A program made the translations under genes and the position numbers. The notes under the pieces are model-generated. The model did not search any database. It worked only from the letters and a program-made list of their open reading frames with translations, and had not been told where the DNA came from. A DNA stretch of 64,000 nt from a virus. Lineage: Duplodnaviria; Heunggongvirae; Uroviricota; Caudoviricetes. The stretch is taken from the IMG/VR virus record IMGVR_UViG_2529292922_000010. One strand, given 5' to 3'. Below, piece by piece: positions 14,984-49,915 of this stretch (the stretch's first letter is position 1; each line of letters begins with the position of its first letter).

Positions 14984-15011
14984 ATTTTCAGCTCCTGTGA
15001 TTGATTGGAAA

Positions 15012-15040
15012 CATGCCGCGCCTTGCGGCATGTTTTTATT
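15012..15040. terminator. GC-rich palindromic hairpin (terminator or leader structure)
   Basis: AAACATGCCGCGCCTTGCGGCATGTTTTT, perfect stem flanked by A and T runs. Confidence 0.5.
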
Positions 15041-15065
15041 TTCACTTTCTCTGTCTTAAAAATCA

Positions 15066-15082
15066 ATATTTATTAGAGCAAT
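15066..15082 (-). promoter_or_regulatory. C1 operator
   Basis: AATATTTATTAGAGCAAT = reverse complement of ATTGCTCTAATAAATATT. Confidence 0.65.
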
Positions 15083-15588
15083 TATTGTTGATGAAAAAGC
15101 GCATTTTCATACTCCCTGACCATTAACGTAAGCACGCCGTGCCTCCTGAAAACACGCGCCACTTCAATCTTATCTTCCAGCGCGAACGCGATTTTACTTA
15201 GACCAATTTTCTTAAGGAGATCAATCTTTGCTGGGCCGTCATTTCTGTCATCGGTGGCAGGACGCATAGATAGCAAAGGCTCAGCCCCGTTTGTTACGTA
15301 CTTCCGCAGCCAGGCTCGTGTTTTATCCCTTGCGATCTCACAGCGCCCGGTTACAAACCAGACCGTGTAAACGTTAAATAACTGGCGCACCATATCAATA
15401 ACTGGAGTGATGGGAGTATCGGTGTCACAGGCGAGATTAAACTCGTTCCAGTCCTTTGTTAATGCACCTTTACCTGGTGGCGGAAGCAAATGCAGTCTGT
15501 CTTCAGTTGCCTCTGATATTGTTCCATCAATATCGACTATGACGATATACGGACGTTCCTGGTGTGCGTGTTTATTGAAAATACTCAA
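15082..15588 (-). CDS. HAD-superfamily phosphatase (Pap-like acid phosphatase)
   Basis: motif I IVIVDIDGTI (DxDGT); 168 aa. Confidence 0.6.
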   Translation of the reverse strand: MSIFNKHAHQERPYIVIVDIDGTISEATEDRLHLLPPPGKGALTKDWNEFNLACDTDTPITPVIDMVRQLFNVYTVWFVTGRCEIARDKTRAWLRKYVTNGAEPLLSMRPATDDRNDGPAKIDLLKKIGLSKIAFALEDKIEVARVFRRHGVLTLMVREYENALFHQQ

Positions 15589-15661
15589 ATGCCCTCCTCA
15601 TTGGACGAAAAAAAATGCTGGTGGGCGCACTCCACCAGCATTAAAAGTGACACTGTAACTA

Positions 15662-16924
15662 TCAGCGAACGTAAATAGTGCCGCCGTTCTCTTTTTCCCA
15701 TGCATCGCTACGTGCATAGCAAACATCGAGAAGTCTTCTTGCCGCTGTTTCCTCTAAACCCAATTCGACAACCAACTGCTCATGACGGCGGGTAACCACA
15801 TCAAACAGGGTATGCAACCCTTTAGTTGCCAGTTCATCAATGAATTCCGGTTCGAACGGTAGCTCTGCATCTGCCAACATAACCTCTTGCGCCCACTCGA
15901 CACGACGGACCAGTTCCGGGCGGCGGCTTTCCATCTCTTTACAGATCAATTCATGGAAGAACTCTACCCAACCTTCCGGCTGGAACTCGCGGAAAATGGC
16001 CAACGGCTGGAAGTTTGGCATCAACCATTCGTTGATCCGGATATCAATGGCATAGCCCATGTCGCAGCAGAACTGATAAGCAAAGTCCAGCTTAGAAACG
16101 ATATAAGGACGCTCGTTATTGAACTCTTTAGGCGATGAGATCCCATAAGCCAGGAGGCGCGGGAAGAAGGAGATTTGCCCTAACGTCGGATGAAGTTTGC
16201 TTGCAGGGAAACGGCGCTCAGTAATGCCATACATTTCCTTCTTGAGCGTCGCAAATTTGGCATTCTCATTAACCAGCGCGGTAACCTCTGCTTTTTTATT
16301 AGCAAATGCCACGCGCGCTTCGCTTGCATCTTTAATAGTTTTTTTGAGCTGTTGGTTAAGGTCGGCGACCTGCTTACGCAGTTCCTGTCGCTCGCTTTTA
16401 GCTTTGTTATAGCGTTTCTCAAGGTTAAAAGGATCAAGTTTCATGATCTCTTTATATTGAGATTTTAGCGTTGAAATCTGTGAGTTCCGCAGTTCAACCA
16501 TCGCGGTCATTTCATTGAGTTTTGTTTCCAGCTCAATGCTTATACGTTCGGCATTATCAGCACGCTGGTTGGCGTCATGCGTCGCATCGTCGATCGCGTC
16601 CTGTTGCTGGCGTTTCAAATGTTCAATTTGCAGCTGAAGCTCTTCAATTTCTTTACCCTTCAGACCGAGATCCAACTGCATATTTTCAGCTGCATCTACC
16701 AGGGAGTTATGGCTATCAGCTTCTGCGTTATAAACATCAATAAGCTGTGCGTGAAGCATCTCCGCTGACTGAACCGCATTATCAAAAAAACGTGCTGTGA
16801 GGTCATCACAACTAACGCGGCGTTGCGCGGCCCGGATGTTCTGGATAATGGCCGGGATACCGGCATTCAGGACGTCAGGGATAGATACATTTTCGATTGA
16901 TTGGTTTTGTGCTGAAGTGCTCAT
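15662..16924 (-). CDS. hypothetical protein, N-terminal coiled coil
   Basis: 420-aa ORF. Confidence 0.5.
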   Translation of the reverse strand: MSTSAQNQSIENVSIPDVLNAGIPAIIQNIRAAQRRVSCDDLTARFFDNAVQSAEMLHAQLIDVYNAEADSHNSLVDAAENMQLDLGLKGKEIEELQLQIEHLKRQQQDAIDDATHDANQRADNAERISIELETKLNEMTAMVELRNSQISTLKSQYKEIMKLDPFNLEKRYNKAKSERQELRKQVADLNQQLKKTIKDASEARVAFANKKAEVTALVNENAKFATLKKEMYGITERRFPASKLHPTLGQISFFPRLLAYGISSPKEFNNERPYIVSKLDFAYQFCCDMGYAIDIRINEWLMPNFQPLAIFREFQPEGWVEFFHELICKEMESRRPELVRRVEWAQEVMLADAELPFEPEFIDELATKGLHTLFDVVTRRHEQLVVELGLEETAARRLLDVCYARSDAWEKENGGTIYVR

Positions 16925-16925
16925 T

Positions 16926-17144
16926 TCAAAGTTCCGTATTAGCTTGTGCTTCGGTCATTTTTCCTAAGTATGAAGGTGGAAGGACTACGCAATTTGTATC
17001 CAGCCCCTCACCCAGGGCAGCCTGTAAAATTCTGGCTAAGGAGAGTCTCTTGTTGCGATACCGGGTGATGACATGCCTGATATCGCCGGACGGCGTAACA
17101 AAGGCGATCAGCCAGTAGTGATATTTCCGTCGGAATGGCCACAT
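16926..17144 (-). CDS. small hypothetical protein
   Basis: 72-aa ORF directly downstream of the 17226 gene. Confidence 0.3.
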   Translation of the reverse strand: MWPFRRKYHYWLIAFVTPSGDIRHVITRYRNKRLSLARILQAALGEGLDTNCVVLPPSYLGKMTEAQANTEL

Positions 17145-17157
17145 AGTGCACCTTATG

Positions 17158-17174
17158 GATTGCTCTAATAAAAA
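17158..17174 (+). promoter_or_regulatory. C1 operator
   Basis: ATTGCTCTAATAAAAAA. Confidence 0.6.
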
Positions 17175-17210
17175 ACGTGATGAGTGTACATCACGTTTTA
17201 AAAATATGGA

Positions 17211-17224
17211 ATTATTAGAGCAAT
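17211..17224 (-). promoter_or_regulatory. C1 operator (inverted partner of 17158); the pair flanks a perfect palindrome AAAACGTGATG...CATCACGTTTT
   Basis: ATTATTAGAGCAAT. Confidence 0.6.
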
Positions 17225-17225
17225 A

Positions 17226-17927
17226 TTATTCTGATTCTTGCTCAAAAAACGCGCTAATGAGAGGAAGCCAATCCTCTGACACTTCACGCGGTCGCGGTTT
17301 GCCATGGAAGAAGATTATTCGGCAGTCTTTTGGTAATGCCCCATTCCCCCTGGAGTAGCGCGCACTTGCATATTTCGAACCAGGTTCCACAACATCGGCC
17401 TTGTAACTTACAAACCATCCCGGATACAGATCCTGAAATGCTGGTGTATCATCGCCCATAACCTTCCGTAAGAACCCCTGATCACCCCAGCATTCAGTAG
17501 TAACACAACGAGCAATCCAACCTTCCGGATCTTGCCAGAATGCACTCCAGATATGCGCTTTTACACTATTTGGTATCCACAGGGCACCGCTGCCACGATA
17601 TTGTGGATGGTAAAAATCCCTAAGCATGGTGAAGCTGGTTGGTGGATGCTCTAGGATTGGGCGTATATCACCGGCAATAACCGTGTCCAAATCCAGATAG
17701 AACAGATCATCGGTTATATCCGGTCGGAACAACTCTATTTTCGCCCACCAGCCACGGCACTTTTGCCACTGGTTGATCAATGGGACAACTTTGACGCCAG
17801 GTACATGTAAACGCTTCAGGTCTGTCAGGCAAATAATTTCATAGCCTTTTGGCAGTTGATTAACCAGCCACTGCACATCGGAAGCGTTATAGTCACCACC
17901 AGAGCGAAAAACTAAAGCAATCTTCAT
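17226..17927 (-). CDS. glycosyltransferase-like protein (DxD motif)
   Basis: 233 aa; [12 protein letters not shown] resembles nucleotide-sugar transferase DxD motif. Confidence 0.4.
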
Positions 17928-18616
17928 GCTGCACCATCACCTTTCACTTTCATCAATGTCAGGTTTCCGCAAAATACGGCACCAGTGTCGATATACTGCT
18001 GATTCCAGAATGTCTTCGGGCTTTTCACCGGAGTGTGACCAAAGATAAAACGATCTGCGCCCGAAATTTCGCCACCAATATCATCCATCGAATCACTGAT
18101 ACGCTCGCGCGCCCAGACAACGTTGAAAAGCGGCACCTCCTTACCGAATTGGTATTCATTATCCGGATAGTCGGCATGGGCTATAACGATAGTTTCTTGC
18201 CCGGTGTTCAACTCAATGATATAGGGCAGACGCTTTACCAGCTCCACCAGCGCCCAGGCTAATATTTCCTGATCAGTGTCCAGCATGAAGAACCATTGTC
18301 CGCCATTCATTAGCCAGTTATTCACGTTGCCATCTGGACTTAACGCATCAATCATCAGCCGCTCATGGTTCCCCATCACTGCCCTGAACCAGGGCATCTG
18401 CAATAGTTCCAGACATTCGACATTTTCAGTACCGCGATCGATAAGGTCGCCGACCGATATCAGTAAATCCTGCGCCGGGTCAAAATCCACACGATGGAGT
18501 TCGGACATCAGTCTGGTGTAGCAACCATGCAGATCACCAACAACCCAGACATTCCTGTATTTGGTACCGTCGATACGGTGATAAATTGTGGGTGCCATCA
18601 TGTATTCTTCAGCCAT
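17924..18616 (-). CDS. ppp: Ser/Thr protein phosphatase (PPP/lambda-phosphatase family)
   Basis: GDLHG, GDLIDRG, GNHE metallophosphatase motifs. Confidence 0.85.
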
Positions 18617-19224
18617 TCTTTAAGAGTCATCTGCGGAATACCTCCCATTTTCCCGCATGAAACAACGTCAATCTGTTCACGCGCAGACTGGAATAACAAA
18701 GGCAGGTGACTTAGATTTTTTGGCGTGCCGCCGGAGTGAACGCGTGGTTCTTGTGTAGCGTCAACGCCCACCAGGGCGACATGTTTGAATCCGATATGGA
18801 AAGCCAGGTTCAGAGCACCATATGCACTATTGCCGCTGGCAATTTCATTCTCATCTTCGCAAAGGCCGAAATGTGCGGACCAGCGCCACGCCCACCACTC
18901 GGGAGAATTCGTATTTTTTGGCTCCATGCCGCGTTCAGCCACACGACGGAAGCACAGAACGCCATCTCTGACTTCACGTTCTTTAACATCGGGTAGTGCC
19001 ATGCAATAACAAACACCACGGCGACGGCGGCCACGACCAACGCGCCGCATATTGTCTGGGGATGGATCAAGGGTGAAAAAATAAGAAGCGCGGTTAAGCC
19101 AGTCGATGGCCCCATTGACCGCTATAATCGGCACTCCGCGCGGCGCAACAAAGTTTGCGGCGCTTGGGCCACTGCCGACGATAATAACGCGATCACTGCC
19201 TCTAAATTTATTCTTGGGAAACAT
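18598..19224 (-). CDS. DUF115/sialyltransferase-like putative glycosyltransferase (paralogue A)
   Basis: N-terminal [10 protein letters not shown]...IIAVNGA motif; paralogous to next gene. Confidence 0.4.
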
Positions 19225-19784
19225 TGAATTGCACTGCTCCTACTTGCATTCAAAATATGTAAATCTGCGTGTTTTTTGCGGGTATCCAGGAACTGCTGTT
19301 GCCATTTTGAAATAGACACCTGCGTTGGATTCCGTAGGGCTTGAGGGTGCGCGCCATGCCAATGAAGGCCGTTTTGCAGAGAACAGTCATAGCCGACTAA
19401 TACCACTACTTCAGCCCCTGATTCAGCAGCCAGACTGATAGCCTGCGCGCCGCTATTTACCCCTTCCGCCGGTCCACAATATCGCCTGTACTCCAACGAA
19501 AATGATTTCGCCGCCGCCAGGTTGGCTGTCACTTTGCGGAATCTCCCTCCCGGTATGGTGGATCCGTATTGCTTCCACCATGACAAATCACCGGCGTATA
19601 AGGCATAAATGTCATCGAACATCTGCCAGGAATTGTTAACCGCGATGATTGAACAGCCAGTTTTTTCTATAGCAGCACAGTCCTCACGAGTGAGTGACGG
19701 ACCGCTACCGACACAAAAAACAGTCCTAGTCGCCCTGGGTGGTATGTTCATTCTCAGCTGCAAATTCAGCCTCCAGGCGAGCAT
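19122..19784 (-). CDS. DUF115/sialyltransferase-like putative glycosyltransferase (paralogue B)
   Basis: VFCVGSGPSL...IIAVNNS; shared NSG...LVGxD motif with paralogue A. Confidence 0.4.
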   Translation of the reverse strand: MLAWRLNLQLRMNIPPRATRTVFCVGSGPSLTREDCAAIEKTGCSIIAVNNSWQMFDDIYALYAGDLSWWKQYGSTIPGGRFRKVTANLAAAKSFSLEYRRYCGPAEGVNSGAQAISLAAESGAEVVVLVGYDCSLQNGLHWHGAHPQALRNPTQVSISKWQQQFLDTRKKHADLHILNASRSSAIQCFPRINLEAVIALLSSAVAQAPQTLLRRAECRL

Positions 19785-19947
19785 TCATTTCAGCGATTAC
19801 AGGGTCCACTACAGCATCTGTTTCCTGTTCATTACGCGGCATGACCGATGCCAGCGACTCATAATTAACCTTGGATGACACGATTATTCTCCCGATGTTA
19901 AAGTGCACTACCACAAAGAGTGTACATGCACTAATTAATTTATTATT

Positions 19948-20526
19948 TTAAGCGACATACAACCACTTATCGCCGTTCAATACATGCTCAATAGCCTCAC
20001 CCTTTTTAAGGCTTATGTATTCCAGAATGGCGGTTATCGCTTGTTCTGCACCATACGCAAGAACGACGTAGTAACCTTCCTCTCTAAGCCTGCGCATCCA
20101 GGCGATCTGCTCTTTCGTCGGGGCTTTACCATTTGGTTCTTTAAGCTCAATTCGCATGCCGTGATAAATGCCGCATGCTTTATCGAGACTCATGTCCGGA
20201 TAACCTTTTTTCTGCCCTTCAGCCTTCATTTTCCCGGCGGTTGCTTTTGAACGTTTCCCTCCGTTAGGCGTTGCATGCAACAGCTCATAGATGTCAGGGT
20301 GCTTGCGTTCGAAGTAATCAAAAATGAAAACCTGCTCGAAGTGCTCGCAATTTCCGTCGCGCAGGTCTGGGTTCTTTGCCAGTGCTGCAAGTGCCTTCGC
20401 ATGTGGAGAAACTTCTTTTACCGGCGCAAGCGATAAGAATGGATCCTTTTTGGTTTTTGGCCTGGACCGCCCCTTATTTCGACGCTCACTAAAAGCCTGA
20501 AACTCTTCCTCAGTAAAGCGCAACAT
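19948..20526 (-). CDS. VRR-NUC domain nuclease
   Basis: GYPDMSL...GIYHGMRIELK...QIAWMRRLREEGYYVVLAYG typical VRR-NUC (PD-(D/E)xK) pattern. Confidence 0.6.
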   Translation of the reverse strand: MLRFTEEEFQAFSERRNKGRSRPKTKKDPFLSLAPVKEVSPHAKALAALAKNPDLRDGNCEHFEQVFIFDYFERKHPDIYELLHATPNGGKRSKATAGKMKAEGQKKGYPDMSLDKACGIYHGMRIELKEPNGKAPTKEQIAWMRRLREEGYYVVLAYGAEQAITAILEYISLKKGEAIEHVLNGDKWLYVA

Positions 20527-20528
20527 AA

Positions 20529-34708: not shown

Positions 34709-34943
34709 ATGGCTTCAAATCCGTACGGCGAAGCATAAAAACGCGATTTGTTCCGCTCTGATTCCCAATGAGGCAAAAGCCTTCTTTCACCTTGATAGCC
34801 TGCAAGTTGTCGAGTTCACCGCTGGTTACACGGCTATCGAACTCTTTGCGGCTTATTAGCTCCATCTGCATCTGACGACTCCAAACAAATGCCCATTGAA
34901 GGGCGATGGCTGAATGGTACCGAAAATACGACATAAAAAACAA
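34587..34943 (-). CDS. hypothetical protein upstream of hrdC
   Basis: 118-aa ORF following C1 operator; overlaps hrdC 5' region so start/extent uncertain. Confidence 0.35.
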
Positions 34944-34958
34944 TATTTATTAGAGCAA
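34941..34958 (-). promoter_or_regulatory. C1 operator
   Basis: AATATTTATTAGAGCAAT. Confidence 0.65.
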
Positions 34959-35040
34959 TTTTGCAATAGCTGAACCCCATGTAGACCACAAACAACCTGA
35001 GCTAAAATAACGAAAATCAGAGCAAATAATTGGTGATGAC

Positions 35041-42062: not shown

Positions 42063-43790
42063 TTGTGTTTAAGGAAGAGTAAATTGAGTAACTTACGCGA
42101 ATACCAGAATCGTATTGCAGATATCGCAAAACGCTCTAAAGCTGTGCTTGGCTGGGCAAGCACTGCGCAGTTCGGTACTGATAACCAATTCATTAAAGAT
42201 GATGCCGCGCGTGCCGCATCTATCCTTGAAGCTGCACGTAAAGACCCGGTTTTTGCGGGTATCTCTGATAATGCCACCGCTCAAATCGCTACAGCGTGGG
42301 CAAGTGCACTGGCTGACTACGCCGCAGCACATAAATCTATGCCGCGTCCGGAAATTCTGGCCTCCTGCCACCAGACGCTGGAAAACTGCCTGATTGAGTC
42401 CACCCGCAATAGCATGGATGCCACTAATAAAGCGATGCTGGAGTCCGTCGCAGCAGAGATGATGAGCGTTTCTGACGGTGTTATGCGTCTGCCTTTATTC
42501 CTCGCGATGATCCTGCCTGTTCAGTTGGGGGCAGCTACCGCTGATGCGTGTACCTTCATTCCGGTTACGCGTGACCAGTCCGACATCTATGAAGTCTTTA
42601 ACGTGGCAGGTTCCTCTTTTGGTTCTTATGCTGCTGGTGATGTTCTGGACATGCAATCCGTCGGTGTGTACAGCCAGTTACGTCGCCGCTATGTGCTGGT
42701 GGCAAGCTCCGATGGCACTAGCAAAACCGCAACCTTCAAGATGGAAGACTTCGAAGGCCAGAATGTACCAATCCGAAAAGGTCGCACTAACATCTACGTT
42801 AACCGTATTAAGTCTGTTGTTGATAACGGTTCCGGCAGCCTACTTCACTCGTTTACTAATGCTGCTGGTGAGCAAATCACTGTTACCTGCTCTCTGAACT
42901 ACAACATTGGTCAGATTGCCCTGTCGTTCTCCAAAGCGCCGGATAAAGGCACTGAGATCGCAATTGAGACGGAAATCAATATTGAAGCCGCTCCTGAGCT
43001 GATCCCGCTGATCAACCACGAAATGAAGAAATACACCCTGTTCCCAAGTCAGTTCGTTATCGCGGCTGAGCACACGGTACAGGCGGCGTATGAAGCACAG
43101 CGTGAATTTGGTCTGGACCTGGGTTCCCTACAGTTCCGCACCCTGAAGGAATACCTGTCTCATGAACAGGATATGCTACGTCTTCGCATCATGATCTGGC
43201 GCACTCTTGCGACCGACACCTTTGACATCGCTCTGCCGGTTAACCAGTCCTTTGATGTATGGGCAACCATCATTCGTGGCAAATTCCAGACTGTATATCG
43301 CGACATTATTGAGCGCGTTAAATCTTCTGGTGCGATGGGGATGTTTGCTGGTGCTGATGCAGCATCTTTCTTCAAACAGTTGCCGAAGGATTTCTTCCAG
43401 CCAGCCGAAGACTATATCCAGACTCCGTATGTTCACTACATCGGTACCCTGTTCGGTAACGTGAAAGTGTACGAAGTACCTGCTGGTATTTGTAAGAACT
43501 TAACGACAGAGAACATTCAGTTCAGCTCGATGGATGTGCTGTGCTACGTCCGTGATGAAAATCCGGGTAAAGCAGGCTTCGTGACTGGTGATGCTGTCCC
43601 GGCCATCCCGTTCCAGCATCCGACCACTCCGGCGCTGGTCAACCGTACCACGCTGTGGGGTTCGGCTATCAATGATATGCACCCACGCAACGGCGCTGAT
43701 TACTTCACTCGTGTAACGCTGACAATGGCCAAAAAAGGCGGGCTTAACTTCATAAGCGGCGACACGATTGATGCCGGTGACTCTGAGTAA
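42063..43790 (+). CDS. major virion structural protein (probable major head protein; TTG or downstream start)
   Basis: 575-aa ORF at head of structural block, strong RBS AAGGAAGAG; position corresponds to P1 gene 23. Confidence 0.5.
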   Translation: MCLRKSKLSNLREYQNRIADIAKRSKAVLGWASTAQFGTDNQFIKDDAARAASILEAARKDPVFAGISDNATAQIATAWASALADYAAAHKSMPRPEILASCHQTLENCLIESTRNSMDATNKAMLESVAAEMMSVSDGVMRLPLFLAMILPVQLGAATADACTFIPVTRDQSDIYEVFNVAGSSFGSYAAGDVLDMQSVGVYSQLRRRYVLVASSDGTSKTATFKMEDFEGQNVPIRKGRTNIYVNRIKSVVDNGSGSLLHSFTNAAGEQITVTCSLNYNIGQIALSFSKAPDKGTEIAIETEINIEAAPELIPLINHEMKKYTLFPSQFVIAAEHTVQAAYEAQREFGLDLGSLQFRTLKEYLSHEQDMLRLRIMIWRTLATDTFDIALPVNQSFDVWATIIRGKFQTVYRDIIERVKSSGAMGMFAGADAASFFKQLPKDFFQPAEDYIQTPYVHYIGTLFGNVKVYEVPAGICKNLTTENIQFSSMDVLCYVRDENPGKAGFVTGDAVPAIPFQHPTTPALVNRTTLWGSAINDMHPRNGADYFTRVTLTMAKKGGLNFISGDTIDAGDSE

Positions 43791-49897: not shown

Positions 49898-49915
49898 AAA
49901 TTTATTAGAGCAAAT
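49898..49915 (-). promoter_or_regulatory. C1 operator controlling kilA-repL
   Basis: AAATTTATTAGAGCAAAT. Confidence 0.65.

Follow-up and report, generated by a model that had tools for sequence, protein, structure and literature searches.

What do the genes surrounding the Ser/Thr phosphatase gene ppp contribute to a P1-like phage? We addressed this question in a 64,000-nucleotide stretch of phage DNA (the window) that is ~98% identical to P1, P7 and SJ46. P1 is a workhorse model phage whose pmg genes have so far remained functionally blank. CRISPRi and deletion data indicate that they are non-essential (PMC10695390), and a literature search on pmgO, pmgP, pmgQ and dbn returned nothing experimental except essentiality screens and transcriptomics. 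The same search found no paper connecting DUF115, the family to which two of the products are related, with phages. An initial annotation of the window, made from its sequence alone, singled out three ORFs around ppp. These correspond to pmgO, pmgP and pmgQ, and we confirm them as ORFs, all on the minus strand. The genes relevant to this analysis are as follows.

17226-17927, minus strand: pmgQ (hdmD in P7), 233 aa
17924-18616, minus strand: ppp (ppp in P7), 230 aa
18598-19224, minus strand: pmgP (hdmC in P7), 208 aa
19122-19784, minus strand: pmgO (hdmB in P7), 220 aa
19726-19914, minus strand: pmgN (hdmA in P7), small ORF heading the block, from the ORF list and P1/P7 annotation
25719-26717, minus strand: dbn (glt in P7), 332-aa ORF adjoining ban

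From pmgN through pmgQ, the genes read leftward (19914 to 17226) with tight overlaps; spacing is -4 nt for pmgQ/ppp, -19 nt for ppp/pmgP and -103 nt for pmgP/pmgO.

The initial annotation had described two of the flanking proteins as mutual paralogs sharing an (I/F)xVGSGPS...IIAVN motif, and had guessed that they were DUF115/sialyltransferase-like. We located VGSGPS...IIAVN in PmgP and PmgO. The similarity between the two is weak by BLASTP (E 0.004 across 36 aa) but solid when their families are compared profile to profile (hhalign probability 98%, E 1.4e-13, calculated without P0092, a natural PmgO-PmgP fusion), and by this measure PmgO is a remote paralog of PmgP. Both are assigned to the Maf/MptE/Cst fold; the best structural match is a Maf glycosyltransferase. 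The Pfam MptE-like model (PF01973) scores 23.4 bits against PmgO and 20.9 bits against PmgP, under its gathering threshold of 34.6; relatives that pass this threshold include the fusion P0092 (44.6 bits) and P0258 (44.1 bits), and PF01973 is precomputed on many other homologs of the two proteins. PmgO also matches PHROG 4603, annotated as alpha-2,3-sialyltransferase (4.4e-74), and conserves the motifs GPS, N50, D66, NSG and GYDCS..HWHG.H. Its homologs are ~180-200 aa long, so its true start may lie at Met12. PmgP carries a family-specific insert (SPEWWLWRWSA). Other searches were less productive: the PmgP family profile matched nothing in the PDB, single-sequence searches of PmgO, PmgP, PmgQ and Dbn against PDB sequences gave noise or marginal matches only, and the viral fold library BFVD returned only uncharacterized DUF115 proteins.

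The DUF115/MptE fold is also home to pyrophosphokinases. PmgO and PmgP could thus be ATP-dependent enzymes of the MptE or thiamine pyrophosphokinase type, or other nucleotide-dependent small-molecule enzymes, within a block devoted to producing or altering some metabolite or nucleotide that PmgQ then glycosylates. The only Pfam model matched bears the MptE name, and an invariant Asp follows the third strand (PmgP D53, PmgO D66) in what we take to be a resemblance to the metal-binding Asp motif of thiamine pyrophosphokinases. A joint profile of PmgO, PmgP and the Escherichia coli protein WaaZ points elsewhere. Its alignment to the GT42 sialyltransferase Cst-II spans the full domain (residues 3-183) with E 1.5e-6, compared with E 0.35 for the MptE kinase, and thiamine pyrophosphokinases are absent from its matches; separate PmgO and PmgP profiles give weaker GT42 matches. 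All four CMP-sugar motifs (the N-terminal GxGPS, an Asn after strand 2, (T/N)SG and G-x-D) are in register with Cst-II. Conserved histidines follow G-x-D in PmgP (H173) and PmgO (H141, H143 and H146), none of which the joint-profile alignment pairs with the catalytic His188 of Cst-II. Because Cst-II matches the joint profile far above the MptE kinase, the earlier sialyltransferase-like guess was accurate, and we regard PmgO and PmgP as putative glycosyltransferases of the DUF115/MptE fold. The pyrophosphokinase reading, to which the genomic context described below is also relevant, we consider improbable.

PmgQ contains the DxD-type motif that the initial annotation had noticed in one ORF. Both aspartates (D79 and D81) are invariant in 24 homologs, as are K63, H208, G209, P211 and P213, and these residues align with the matching motifs of AgtA and glycogenin. 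Together they provide the GT8 set of a DxD, an upstream Lys and a C-terminal His motif of the H-x-x-G-x-x-K-P-W type. The predicted fold is GT-A Rossmann-like with GT8 structures nearest, and the PmgQ family profile reaches GT8 structures at E 1.1e-5. Searches of Pfam and NCBIfam at E <= 0.1 returned nothing for PmgQ, Glyco_transf_8 included. PmgQ differs from characterized GT8 enzymes (AgtA, glycogenin, GlyE, LgtC and WaaO/R/J) in sharing just 13-17% identity with them and in being a minimal single domain of 233 aa without that Pfam match. We therefore describe it as a putative GT8-like GT-A glycosyltransferase; analogy to these enzymes points to metal-dependent, retaining transfer from a UDP-hexose.

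A GT-B-like enzyme had also been proposed near ban. Its signature, ESLGLTVLEAAMCGALVL, falls in the 332-aa ORF at 25719-26717, which is dbn. Dbn scores 25.1 bits (E 1.5e-5) against Pfam Glycos_transf_1, just under the 26.4 cutoff; all three of its homologs match this model, and the EX7E motif keeps both its glutamates, E248 and E256, without exception. A three-sequence Dbn profile was uninformative against PDB sequences. Dbn is a putative GT4-type GT-B glycosyltransferase. With it, all four proteins show glycosyltransferase-type folds or signatures, and the profile and structure searches that the initial annotation had called for placed none of them in a non-glycosyltransferase fold.

The relationship among these genes became apparent from their occurrence elsewhere. 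A first scan of viral contigs yielded P1-like duplicates only, and the diversity considered here comes from scans of genomes and metagenomes. In dereplicated non-P1 loci with enough flanking sequence, PmgQ is encoded no more than 5 kb from PmgP in 24 of 25 and PmgO in 17 of 25, and the order O-P-Q is repeated in unrelated phage backbones. The proteins are also naturally fused: in addition to the O-P fusion, we found P-Q (P0223, P0292), Q-P (P0305), Q-P-methyltransferase (P0270) and methyltransferase-P (P0304) arrangements. Some copies are accompanied by extra GT-A and GT-B enzymes and methyltransferases. PmgO, PmgP and PmgQ thus constitute a conserved mobile cassette, which is a new finding. 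PmgP is its best-conserved member, with 47-60% identity across bacterial classes. The constant linkage and occasional fusion of PmgP to a GT8 enzyme, with further GT-A and GT-B enzymes and methyltransferases in some cassettes, is the usual make-up of a glycan pathway and argues further against a pyrophosphokinase role.

Dbn is an accessory member of this cassette that is detached in P1, where dbn lies ~6 kb away. We link the two because in phages EP_H11 and IME392 the gene for a Dbn homolog (48% identity) separates those for PmgP and PmgQ; in EP_H11, PmgO-PmgP-Dbn-PmgQ are contiguous. At a further locus (L103), a 38% identical homolog lies 3 kb from the cassette.

The opposite holds for ppp, which the initial annotation had treated as an interleaved member of the unit. 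Its product is a lambda-type Ser/Thr protein phosphatase that resembles PrpA/PrpB and lambda NinI (Pfam Metallophos, 59.3 bits against a cutoff of 21.5; PHROG 246, NinI-like, 5e-113; NCBIfam PRK11439, 272 bits, under the equivalog cutoff of 326). It adjoins the cassette solely in P1-like loci (L089-L091). We considered whether Ppp works together with the glycosyltransferases and rejected this, since ppp is missing from every non-P1 cassette; the gene is a P1-lineage insertion, a passenger rather than a part of the cassette. The product of pmgN has no family matches, and pmgN is likewise confined to P1-like loci and not kept with the cassette elsewhere.

The surroundings of the cassette provide information regarding its target. 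In 14 of 42 dereplicated loci, ~30 of which have usable flanks, it occupies the head-neck slot of HK97-like structural operons. A major capsid gene lies one to three genes upstream in 10 loci, with the position directly after it being the commonest site, and a head-tail adaptor adjoins the cassette in nine. The neighboring capsid proteins vary by family (HK97-type, lambda E-type, P22-type and P1 gp23). In bacterial chromosomes, inverse-autotransporter adhesin genes are interspersed with those of the cassette. Other cassettes are near lysis genes, away from structural genes, and two are in nucleotide-metabolism regions with ribonucleotide reductase, exonuclease, ThyX-like and dNMP-kinase-like genes. 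All carriers that we could identify are Gram-negative bacteria or phages infecting them. No sugar-nucleotide synthesis genes are brought by the cassette. The initial annotation had offered either host surface glycans or phage components as the target; of these, the clustering at capsid and neck genes favors the latter over surface conversion.

The two nucleotide-metabolism loci, which also lend some support to the pyrophosphokinase reading, raise the possibility that the enzymes attach sugars to nucleic acid, at DNA bases or at the level of a nucleotide precursor, to counter restriction. DNA would be a universal acceptor, and P1 devotes many genes to anti-restriction. The contexts of the cassette are nevertheless mostly structural, and no hydroxymethylase or base-activating gene lies near it in P1 or the lambdoid carriers. 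Moreover, we know of no glycosylated bases in P1 or lambdoid phage DNA and of no DNA glycosyltransferase with a DUF115 or GT8 fold. We judge this explanation highly improbable.

When the enzymes are made also bears on what they modify. A scan for C1-operator-like sites found 13 in the window, compared with 0.28 expected. The following four sites concern the block.

17159-17175, plus strand: Op86b, from the C1 site scan; P1 annotation has OpmgRa/b and PpmgR here
17208-17224, minus strand: Op86a, from the C1 site scan; P1 annotation has OpmgRa/b and PpmgR here
19925-19941, plus strand: Op83/Oppp-like C1 operator upstream of the block, CATGCACTAATTAATTT, four mismatches to the consensus
20832-20848, plus strand: Op82 (O26), C1 operator annotated in P1, two mismatches to the consensus

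The whole block had been placed under a double C1 operator at 17158 and 17211. Sites do exist there, but since the genes run from 19914 to 17226, both are 3' to the pmgQ stop codon (17226) in the direction of transcription, downstream of the genes they were thought to govern rather than upstream at a promoter. According to the P1 annotation, they overlap PpmgR, the promoter driving pmgR-pmgS, and we correct the regulatory assignment of the double operator to these genes. Upstream of the block, the Op83-like site sits in the 33-nt gap between pmgM and pmgN, in a position that matches the P1-annotated Oppp and PpmgN. Op82 lies in the divergent pmgL/gene 26 promoter region, where P1 annotation adds the late promoter LPpmgL. 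The annotated promoters upstream of the block are thus PpmgN, PpmgL and LPpmgL. Because these are C1-repressed or late, we expect pmgN-pmgO-pmgP-ppp-pmgQ to be expressed during lytic growth and silent in the lysogen.

This expectation leaves a lysogen phenotype such as seroconversion or exclusion, as had been suggested for the block, unsupported. In its full form, that proposal would have the 17158/17211 operator control a block, ppp included, that converts the O-antigen or LPS of the lysogen. In its favor, O-antigen conversion by phage genes is well known, the evidence supports glycosyltransferase identity, and C1 operators are present at these places. However, both operators belong to pmgR/pmgS, a C1 operator implies that the genes are shut off in the lysogen, contrary to what lysogenic conversion requires, and ppp is not shared by cassettes outside P1-like elements. 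The cassette also contains no flippase, bactoprenol-linked glycosyltransferase of the Gtr type or membrane protein. The lysogenic conversion scheme therefore appears very unlikely.

Folds, motifs, paralogy, cassette linkage and fusions, gene order and operator positions are established. The explanation that we prefer, with a probability of roughly 50%, is that the cassette builds a glycan on a protein acceptor during the lytic phase. PmgO, PmgP, PmgQ and the detached Dbn would act as small soluble glycosyltransferases that jointly assemble a short glycan. PmgO and PmgP, as paralogs with the nucleotide-sugar motifs of CMP-sialic-acid transferases (GT42 Cst-I/II and Maf), would use a CMP-linked donor. 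Unlike CMP-Neu5Ac, CMP-Kdo is produced by E. coli K-12, and this host compound is the most likely donor because the cassette supplies no sugar-nucleotide synthesis genes and all identified carriers are Gram-negative bacteria or their phages. PmgQ, with the DxD and His metal ligands of a GT8-like GT-A enzyme, and Dbn, with the EX7E motif of a GT4-like one, would most likely draw on UDP-hexoses. In P1, PmgO, PmgP and PmgQ would be made from one leftward operon, pmgN-pmgO-pmgP-ppp-pmgQ, fed by the upstream C1-repressed and late promoters. The acceptor would be a co-synthesized protein, most probably one from the head or neck of the virion, a proposition to which we give odds at or slightly short of even; its glycosylation would take place in the cytoplasm, either ahead of assembly or while assembly proceeds, with a possible benefit such as virion stability, shielding or altered adsorption behavior. 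This proposal gathers four scattered "hypothetical" and "putative morphogenetic" labels into a single testable glycan-cassette hypothesis. A virion target, if confirmed, would bear on phage immunogenicity, clearance during therapy, particle stability and P1-based delivery.

Several observations sit less easily with a virion acceptor. These include the cassettes near lysis or ribonucleotide reductase genes, the sub-threshold Pfam scores of the window proteins and the sharing of their fold with pyrophosphokinases. A highly conserved PmgP beside varied capsid families fits a conserved acceptor of the Kdo-lipid A kind better, unless the substrate of PmgP is the glycan and not the protein. Text searches of two recent cryo-EM studies of P1, one on capsid, tail and baseplate and the other on the tail-baseplate complex, returned no mention of glycan density, and a text search of a P1 virion LC-MS/MS paper returned none of glycosylation.

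Such a conserved acceptor is central to the main competing explanation, in which the enzymes form a small waa-like cluster, working on the inner side of the cytoplasmic membrane, that remodels the LPS core. In the manner of WaaZ, which attaches Kdo III, PmgO and PmgP would extend the Kdo-lipid A inner core with additional Kdo, and PmgQ (GT8, compare WaaO/WaaR/WaaJ) and Dbn (GT4, compare WaaG/WaaB) would add hexoses. The LPS core is the receptor of P1, and an altered or truncated core could lead to superinfection exclusion or to fewer progeny lost on debris. WaaZ is in the same superfamily (E 6.9e-7 to Pfam MptE-like) and has invariant G, N, D and G-x-D positions in common with PmgO and PmgP; the fusion P0092 has a faint precomputed match to WaaZ_KDO_III (PF27901). 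LgtC (GT8) and Cst-I/II act on lipooligosaccharide, and a Kdo-lipid A acceptor would explain both the conservation of PmgP and the restriction to Gram-negative carriers. Overexpression of WaaZ truncates the outer core, as relayed by a source citing the original work (Frirdich 2003; review PMC6358824), and the cassette carrier phiNP uses the LPS core GlcII as its receptor (PMC6456863).

We nonetheless find core remodeling doubtful. Direct comparison with WaaZ by hhalign is weak (probability 16% for PmgP and 8% for PmgO), head-neck clusters and chromosomal adhesin neighbors are atypical places for conversion genes, and methyltransferase partners and fusions are foreign to enterobacterial core synthesis. 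With the block repressed in the lysogen, replacing surface LPS within one lytic cycle would also seem inefficient. Should the LPS core prove to be the target, it would represent a new receptor-masking mechanism of the lytic phase. As a separate matter of classification, we do not place PmgO and PmgP with WaaZ in GT73, the direct hhalign probabilities being too low to claim a specific relationship.

Returning to protein glycosylation, we speculate, with the odds against so specific a version, that P1 and hundreds of other tailed phages with Gram-negative hosts draw on host CMP-Kdo and UDP-sugars to attach a short, sometimes methylated, Kdo glycan to their own capsid or neck proteins, and that the chromosomal cassettes do the same to adhesins. 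If correct, two things would be described for the first time: a virion glycosylation system in phages with Gram-negative hosts and a protein-linked Kdo glycan produced by DUF115-type enzymes. The idea can be tested directly in P1. Virion glycosylation reportedly occurs in mycobacteriophages, for instance Che8 and Myrna; to our knowledge, DUF115-type enzymes have no part in those systems. Both these and the chlorovirus PBCV-1 (A064R) employ enzyme families other than those of the putative system considered here, whose hosts are Gram-negative.

Among enzymes with a related fold, Maf, GT42 Cst-I/II and WaaZ are the closest comparisons, with the window proteins scoring under the Pfam threshold and resembling WaaZ at the superfamily level only. 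Cst-II has a C-terminal membrane-association segment; PmgO and PmgP are without such a segment and without the extra domains of Maf. The gtrABC and O-antigen modules of P22, SfV and D3 resemble the cassette in being phage-borne, non-essential sugar-modifying genes. Gtr systems, however, combine a bactoprenol-linked sugar, a flippase and a membrane glycosyltransferase with expression in the lysogen, while the cassette encodes soluble enzymes under repressor-controlled or late promoters.

The window is a P1-like phage-plasmid; across positions 15000-21000, sequence comparison gives 98-99% identity to Salmonella phage SJ46, P1 and P7. The genes pmgO, pmgP, pmgQ, ppp and dbn are known from P1 and P7, and all of these P1 genes are dispensable for plaque formation (PMC10695390). 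Our literature search found no experimental study of the function of pmgO, pmgP, pmgQ or dbn. The coordinates of pmgQ, ppp, pmgP and pmgO below derive from the ORF list and P1/P7 annotation.

Genes of the pmgN-pmgQ block and dbn
17226-17927, minus strand: pmgQ (P7 hdmD)
17924-18616, minus strand: ppp (P7 ppp), phosphatase gene
18598-19224, minus strand: pmgP (P7 hdmC)
19122-19784, minus strand: pmgO (P7 hdmB)
19726-19914, minus strand: pmgN, a small ORF packed with the preceding four
25719-26717: dbn (P7 glt), adjoining ban

Every motif quoted in the initial annotation was found in these proteins, and the further enzyme it placed beside ban is Dbn. The five genes from pmgN to pmgQ form a tight block with successive overlaps of 59, 103, 19 and 4 nt. 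The 103-nt pmgO/pmgP overlap (19122-19224) is read in different frames and encodes the C-terminal tail of PmgO and the N-terminal leader of PmgP, neither of which is conserved; one natural fusion, P0092, links the two domains directly where the P1 genes overlap. Nearby minus-strand genes encode a VRR-NUC nuclease-like protein (pmgM, 19948-20526; Pfam 21.2 bits, just under the cutoff; PHROG 5702 "Holliday junction resolvase", 4.8e-27), a DksA/TraR-type zinc finger-like protein (pmgL, 20529-20774; PHROG 54), and a protein that matches the polynucleotide kinase-phosphatase phosphatase domain rather than a generic "acid phosphatase" (pap, 15082-15588; Pfam HAD_PNKP, 46.6 bits).

PmgO and PmgP each fall under the Pfam MptE-like/DUF115 threshold, which their homologues and one natural fusion exceed; profile comparison makes their families distant paralogues (hhalign 98%, E 1.4e-13). 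Glycosyltransferases and pyrophosphokinases cannot be told apart by this fold alone, but they can by sequence. When PmgP, PmgO and WaaZ were combined in a joint profile, it aligned with the GT42 sialyltransferase Cst-II along the full domain (E 1.5e-6) and kept the GxGPS, VN, (N/T)S and G-x-D motifs in register, whereas it reached only E 0.35 against the kinase MptE. We accordingly regard a pyrophosphokinase role as improbable. E. coli WaaZ, the LPS inner-core Kdo III transferase, falls within the MptE-like/DUF115 superfamily too (Pfam E 6.9e-7) and shares the invariant positions of PmgO and PmgP; direct similarity is weak in pairwise profile comparison. Dbn matches Glycos_transf_1 slightly under threshold and bears an invariant EX7E motif, and Ppp is a standard lambda-type phosphatase (Pfam, PHROG and NCBIfam matches). 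Automated annotation already labels PmgQ "glycosyltransferase," PmgO "alpha-2,3-sialyltransferase," and Dbn "glycosyltransferase family 4" or "Glt." A typo in the pmgM note of the P1 record, "putative norphogenetic function," has also propagated, such that PmgO and PmgP homologues in many genera now carry the NCBI/UniRef product name "Norphogenetic protein."

Our main new result is that these genes form a conserved mobile cassette, PmgO-PmgP-PmgQ(-Dbn), which, together with its fusions and preferred site after the capsid gene, appears to be undescribed; phage-encoded glycosylation modules, among which it belongs, are already known as a kind. The PmgP family comprises 548 cluster representatives. 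Dereplication of 47 non-P1 loci, drawn from genome and metagenome data, left 42 clusters, and we counted linkage in the 25 whose PmgP is flanked by 2.5 kb or more on each side. PmgQ lay within 5 kb of PmgP in 24 of these and PmgO in 17, with Dbn and GTx, a fourth, Nucleotid_trans-like GT-A enzyme, in three clusters each. The O-P-Q order recurs across unrelated backbones, namely phiNP (a Citrobacter rodentium lambdoid prophage), a contig resembling a podovirus, and HK97-like prophages in Pseudomonas, Ochrobactrum and Zhongshania. Natural fusions are of the types O-P, P-Q, Q-P, Q-P-methyltransferase and methyltransferase-P. PmgO, PmgP, Dbn and PmgQ are contiguous in coliphages EP_H11 and IME392, where Dbn fills the position of P1 ppp, and a Buttiauxella prophage carries a Dbn homologue 3 kb from the cassette. 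The clear PmgP homologue of EP_H11 (OP688485.1, about 42813-43448; locus L110, 6400-7035; HMM E 2.4e-78) has no deposited CDS, unlike its annotated PmgO-, Dbn- and PmgQ-like neighbors.

Among the loci examined, ppp accompanies the cassette only in P1-like elements; we therefore reject it as a cassette partner and consider it a lineage-specific insertion.

Head-neck genes are the most frequent neighbors of the cassette. In 10 clusters an HK97-type major capsid gene is found one to three genes upstream, and in nine a head-tail adaptor is adjacent; one or the other is beside the cassette in 14 of 42 clusters, about 30 of which have usable flanks. Other sites are a tail gene cluster, positions beside ribonucleotide reductase genes and, in lambdoid phages, positions following the lysis genes or the Q antiterminator; an orphan P-Q pair is chromosomal. 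In several Pseudescherichia-like chromosomes (L093-L097, Pseudescherichia and Enterobacteriaceae; e.g., L093 3357-12873), pmgO, pmgP and pmgQ are interleaved with large genes for adhesins bearing Big_1 repeats, one an IAT_beta-domain inverse autotransporter with seven such repeats, the second a Big_1/RCC1-repeat protein. This arrangement hints at adhesin glycosylation. The most frequent additional genes within or beside the cassette encode SAM-dependent methyltransferases (L099 8570-9139; L105 8646-9272; L106 4467-5159 and 6349-7956), which together with those fused to PmgP (P0270, P0304) are of the Methyltransf_21, _23 and _24 types. Their recurrence points to a methylated glycan in some lineages; the P1 pmgN-pmgQ block has no methyltransferase.

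Building on the observed folds, motifs, paralogy, linkage and gene order, we infer the remainder of the mechanism. The cassette lacks sugar-nucleotide synthesis genes, and all carriers identified are Gram-negative bacteria or phages of such hosts, spanning Alpha-, Beta- and Gammaproteobacteria, Bacteroidota and Gemmatimonadota. CMP-Kdo is available in E. coli K-12, which is not known to produce CMP-sialic acid. For these reasons, PmgO and PmgP would use CMP-Kdo as donor, and PmgQ and Dbn UDP-hexoses. As acceptor we favor, at a probability of roughly 0.45-0.5, a protein synthesized in the lytic phase, most likely one from the virion head or neck. A protein is favored by the capsid-adjacent site, the adhesin-adjacent chromosomal copies, and the closest structural relatives of the cassette enzymes, which include the protein glycosylators Maf, AgtA, GlyE and glycogenin. 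Counting against a virion target, a text search of recent P1 cryo-EM papers and the virion proteome paper found no mention of a glycan. A nucleic-acid target seems very remote. The leading alternative is remodeling of the LPS core, which we consider unlikely. In its favor, the WaaZ, GT8 and GT4 families are precisely those of the waa core pathway, and the LPS core is the P1 receptor. It is also the receptor of phiNP, itself a cassette carrier (PMC6456863), and overproducing WaaZ truncates the core (PMC6358824). Kdo-lipid A, as a conserved acceptor, would moreover explain the strong conservation of PmgP; however, the cassette sits in a structural-operon context, and one lytic cycle leaves little time to replace surface LPS. 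Glycosylation of a virion protein is directly testable in a model phage.

Scanning the whole window with a 17-bp consensus, allowing up to three mismatches, yielded 13 C1-operator matches versus 0.28 expected by chance (among them 42-58, 125-141, 15066-15082, 34943-34959, 49898-49914, and an overlapping, divergent pair at 31251-31278).

Control sites around the block
17159-17175, plus strand: C1-operator-like site, Op86b in P1
17208-17224, minus strand: C1-operator-like site, Op86a in P1
19925-19941: Op83-like operator with four mismatches, in the pmgM-pmgN gap upstream of the block
20832-20848: Op82, upstream of the block (consensus scan)
Upstream of the block, by P1 annotation: PpmgN and PpmgL (sigma-70) and LPpmgL (late)

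The initial annotation placed the block under a double C1 operator formed by the first two sites. Because the block genes read leftwards, these lie 3' of the pmgQ stop codon, and in the P1 annotation both overlap PpmgR, the promoter of pmgR and pmgS. The upstream operators and sigma-70 and late promoters instead lead us to expect the block to be silent in the lysogen and active in lytic growth, which speaks against the lysogen phenotype proposed earlier. P1 pmgN came out essential under CRISPRi but proved dispensable when deleted (PMC10695390); at this site the dCas12a block may have acted through polarity or by hitting the overlapping promoter/operator region.
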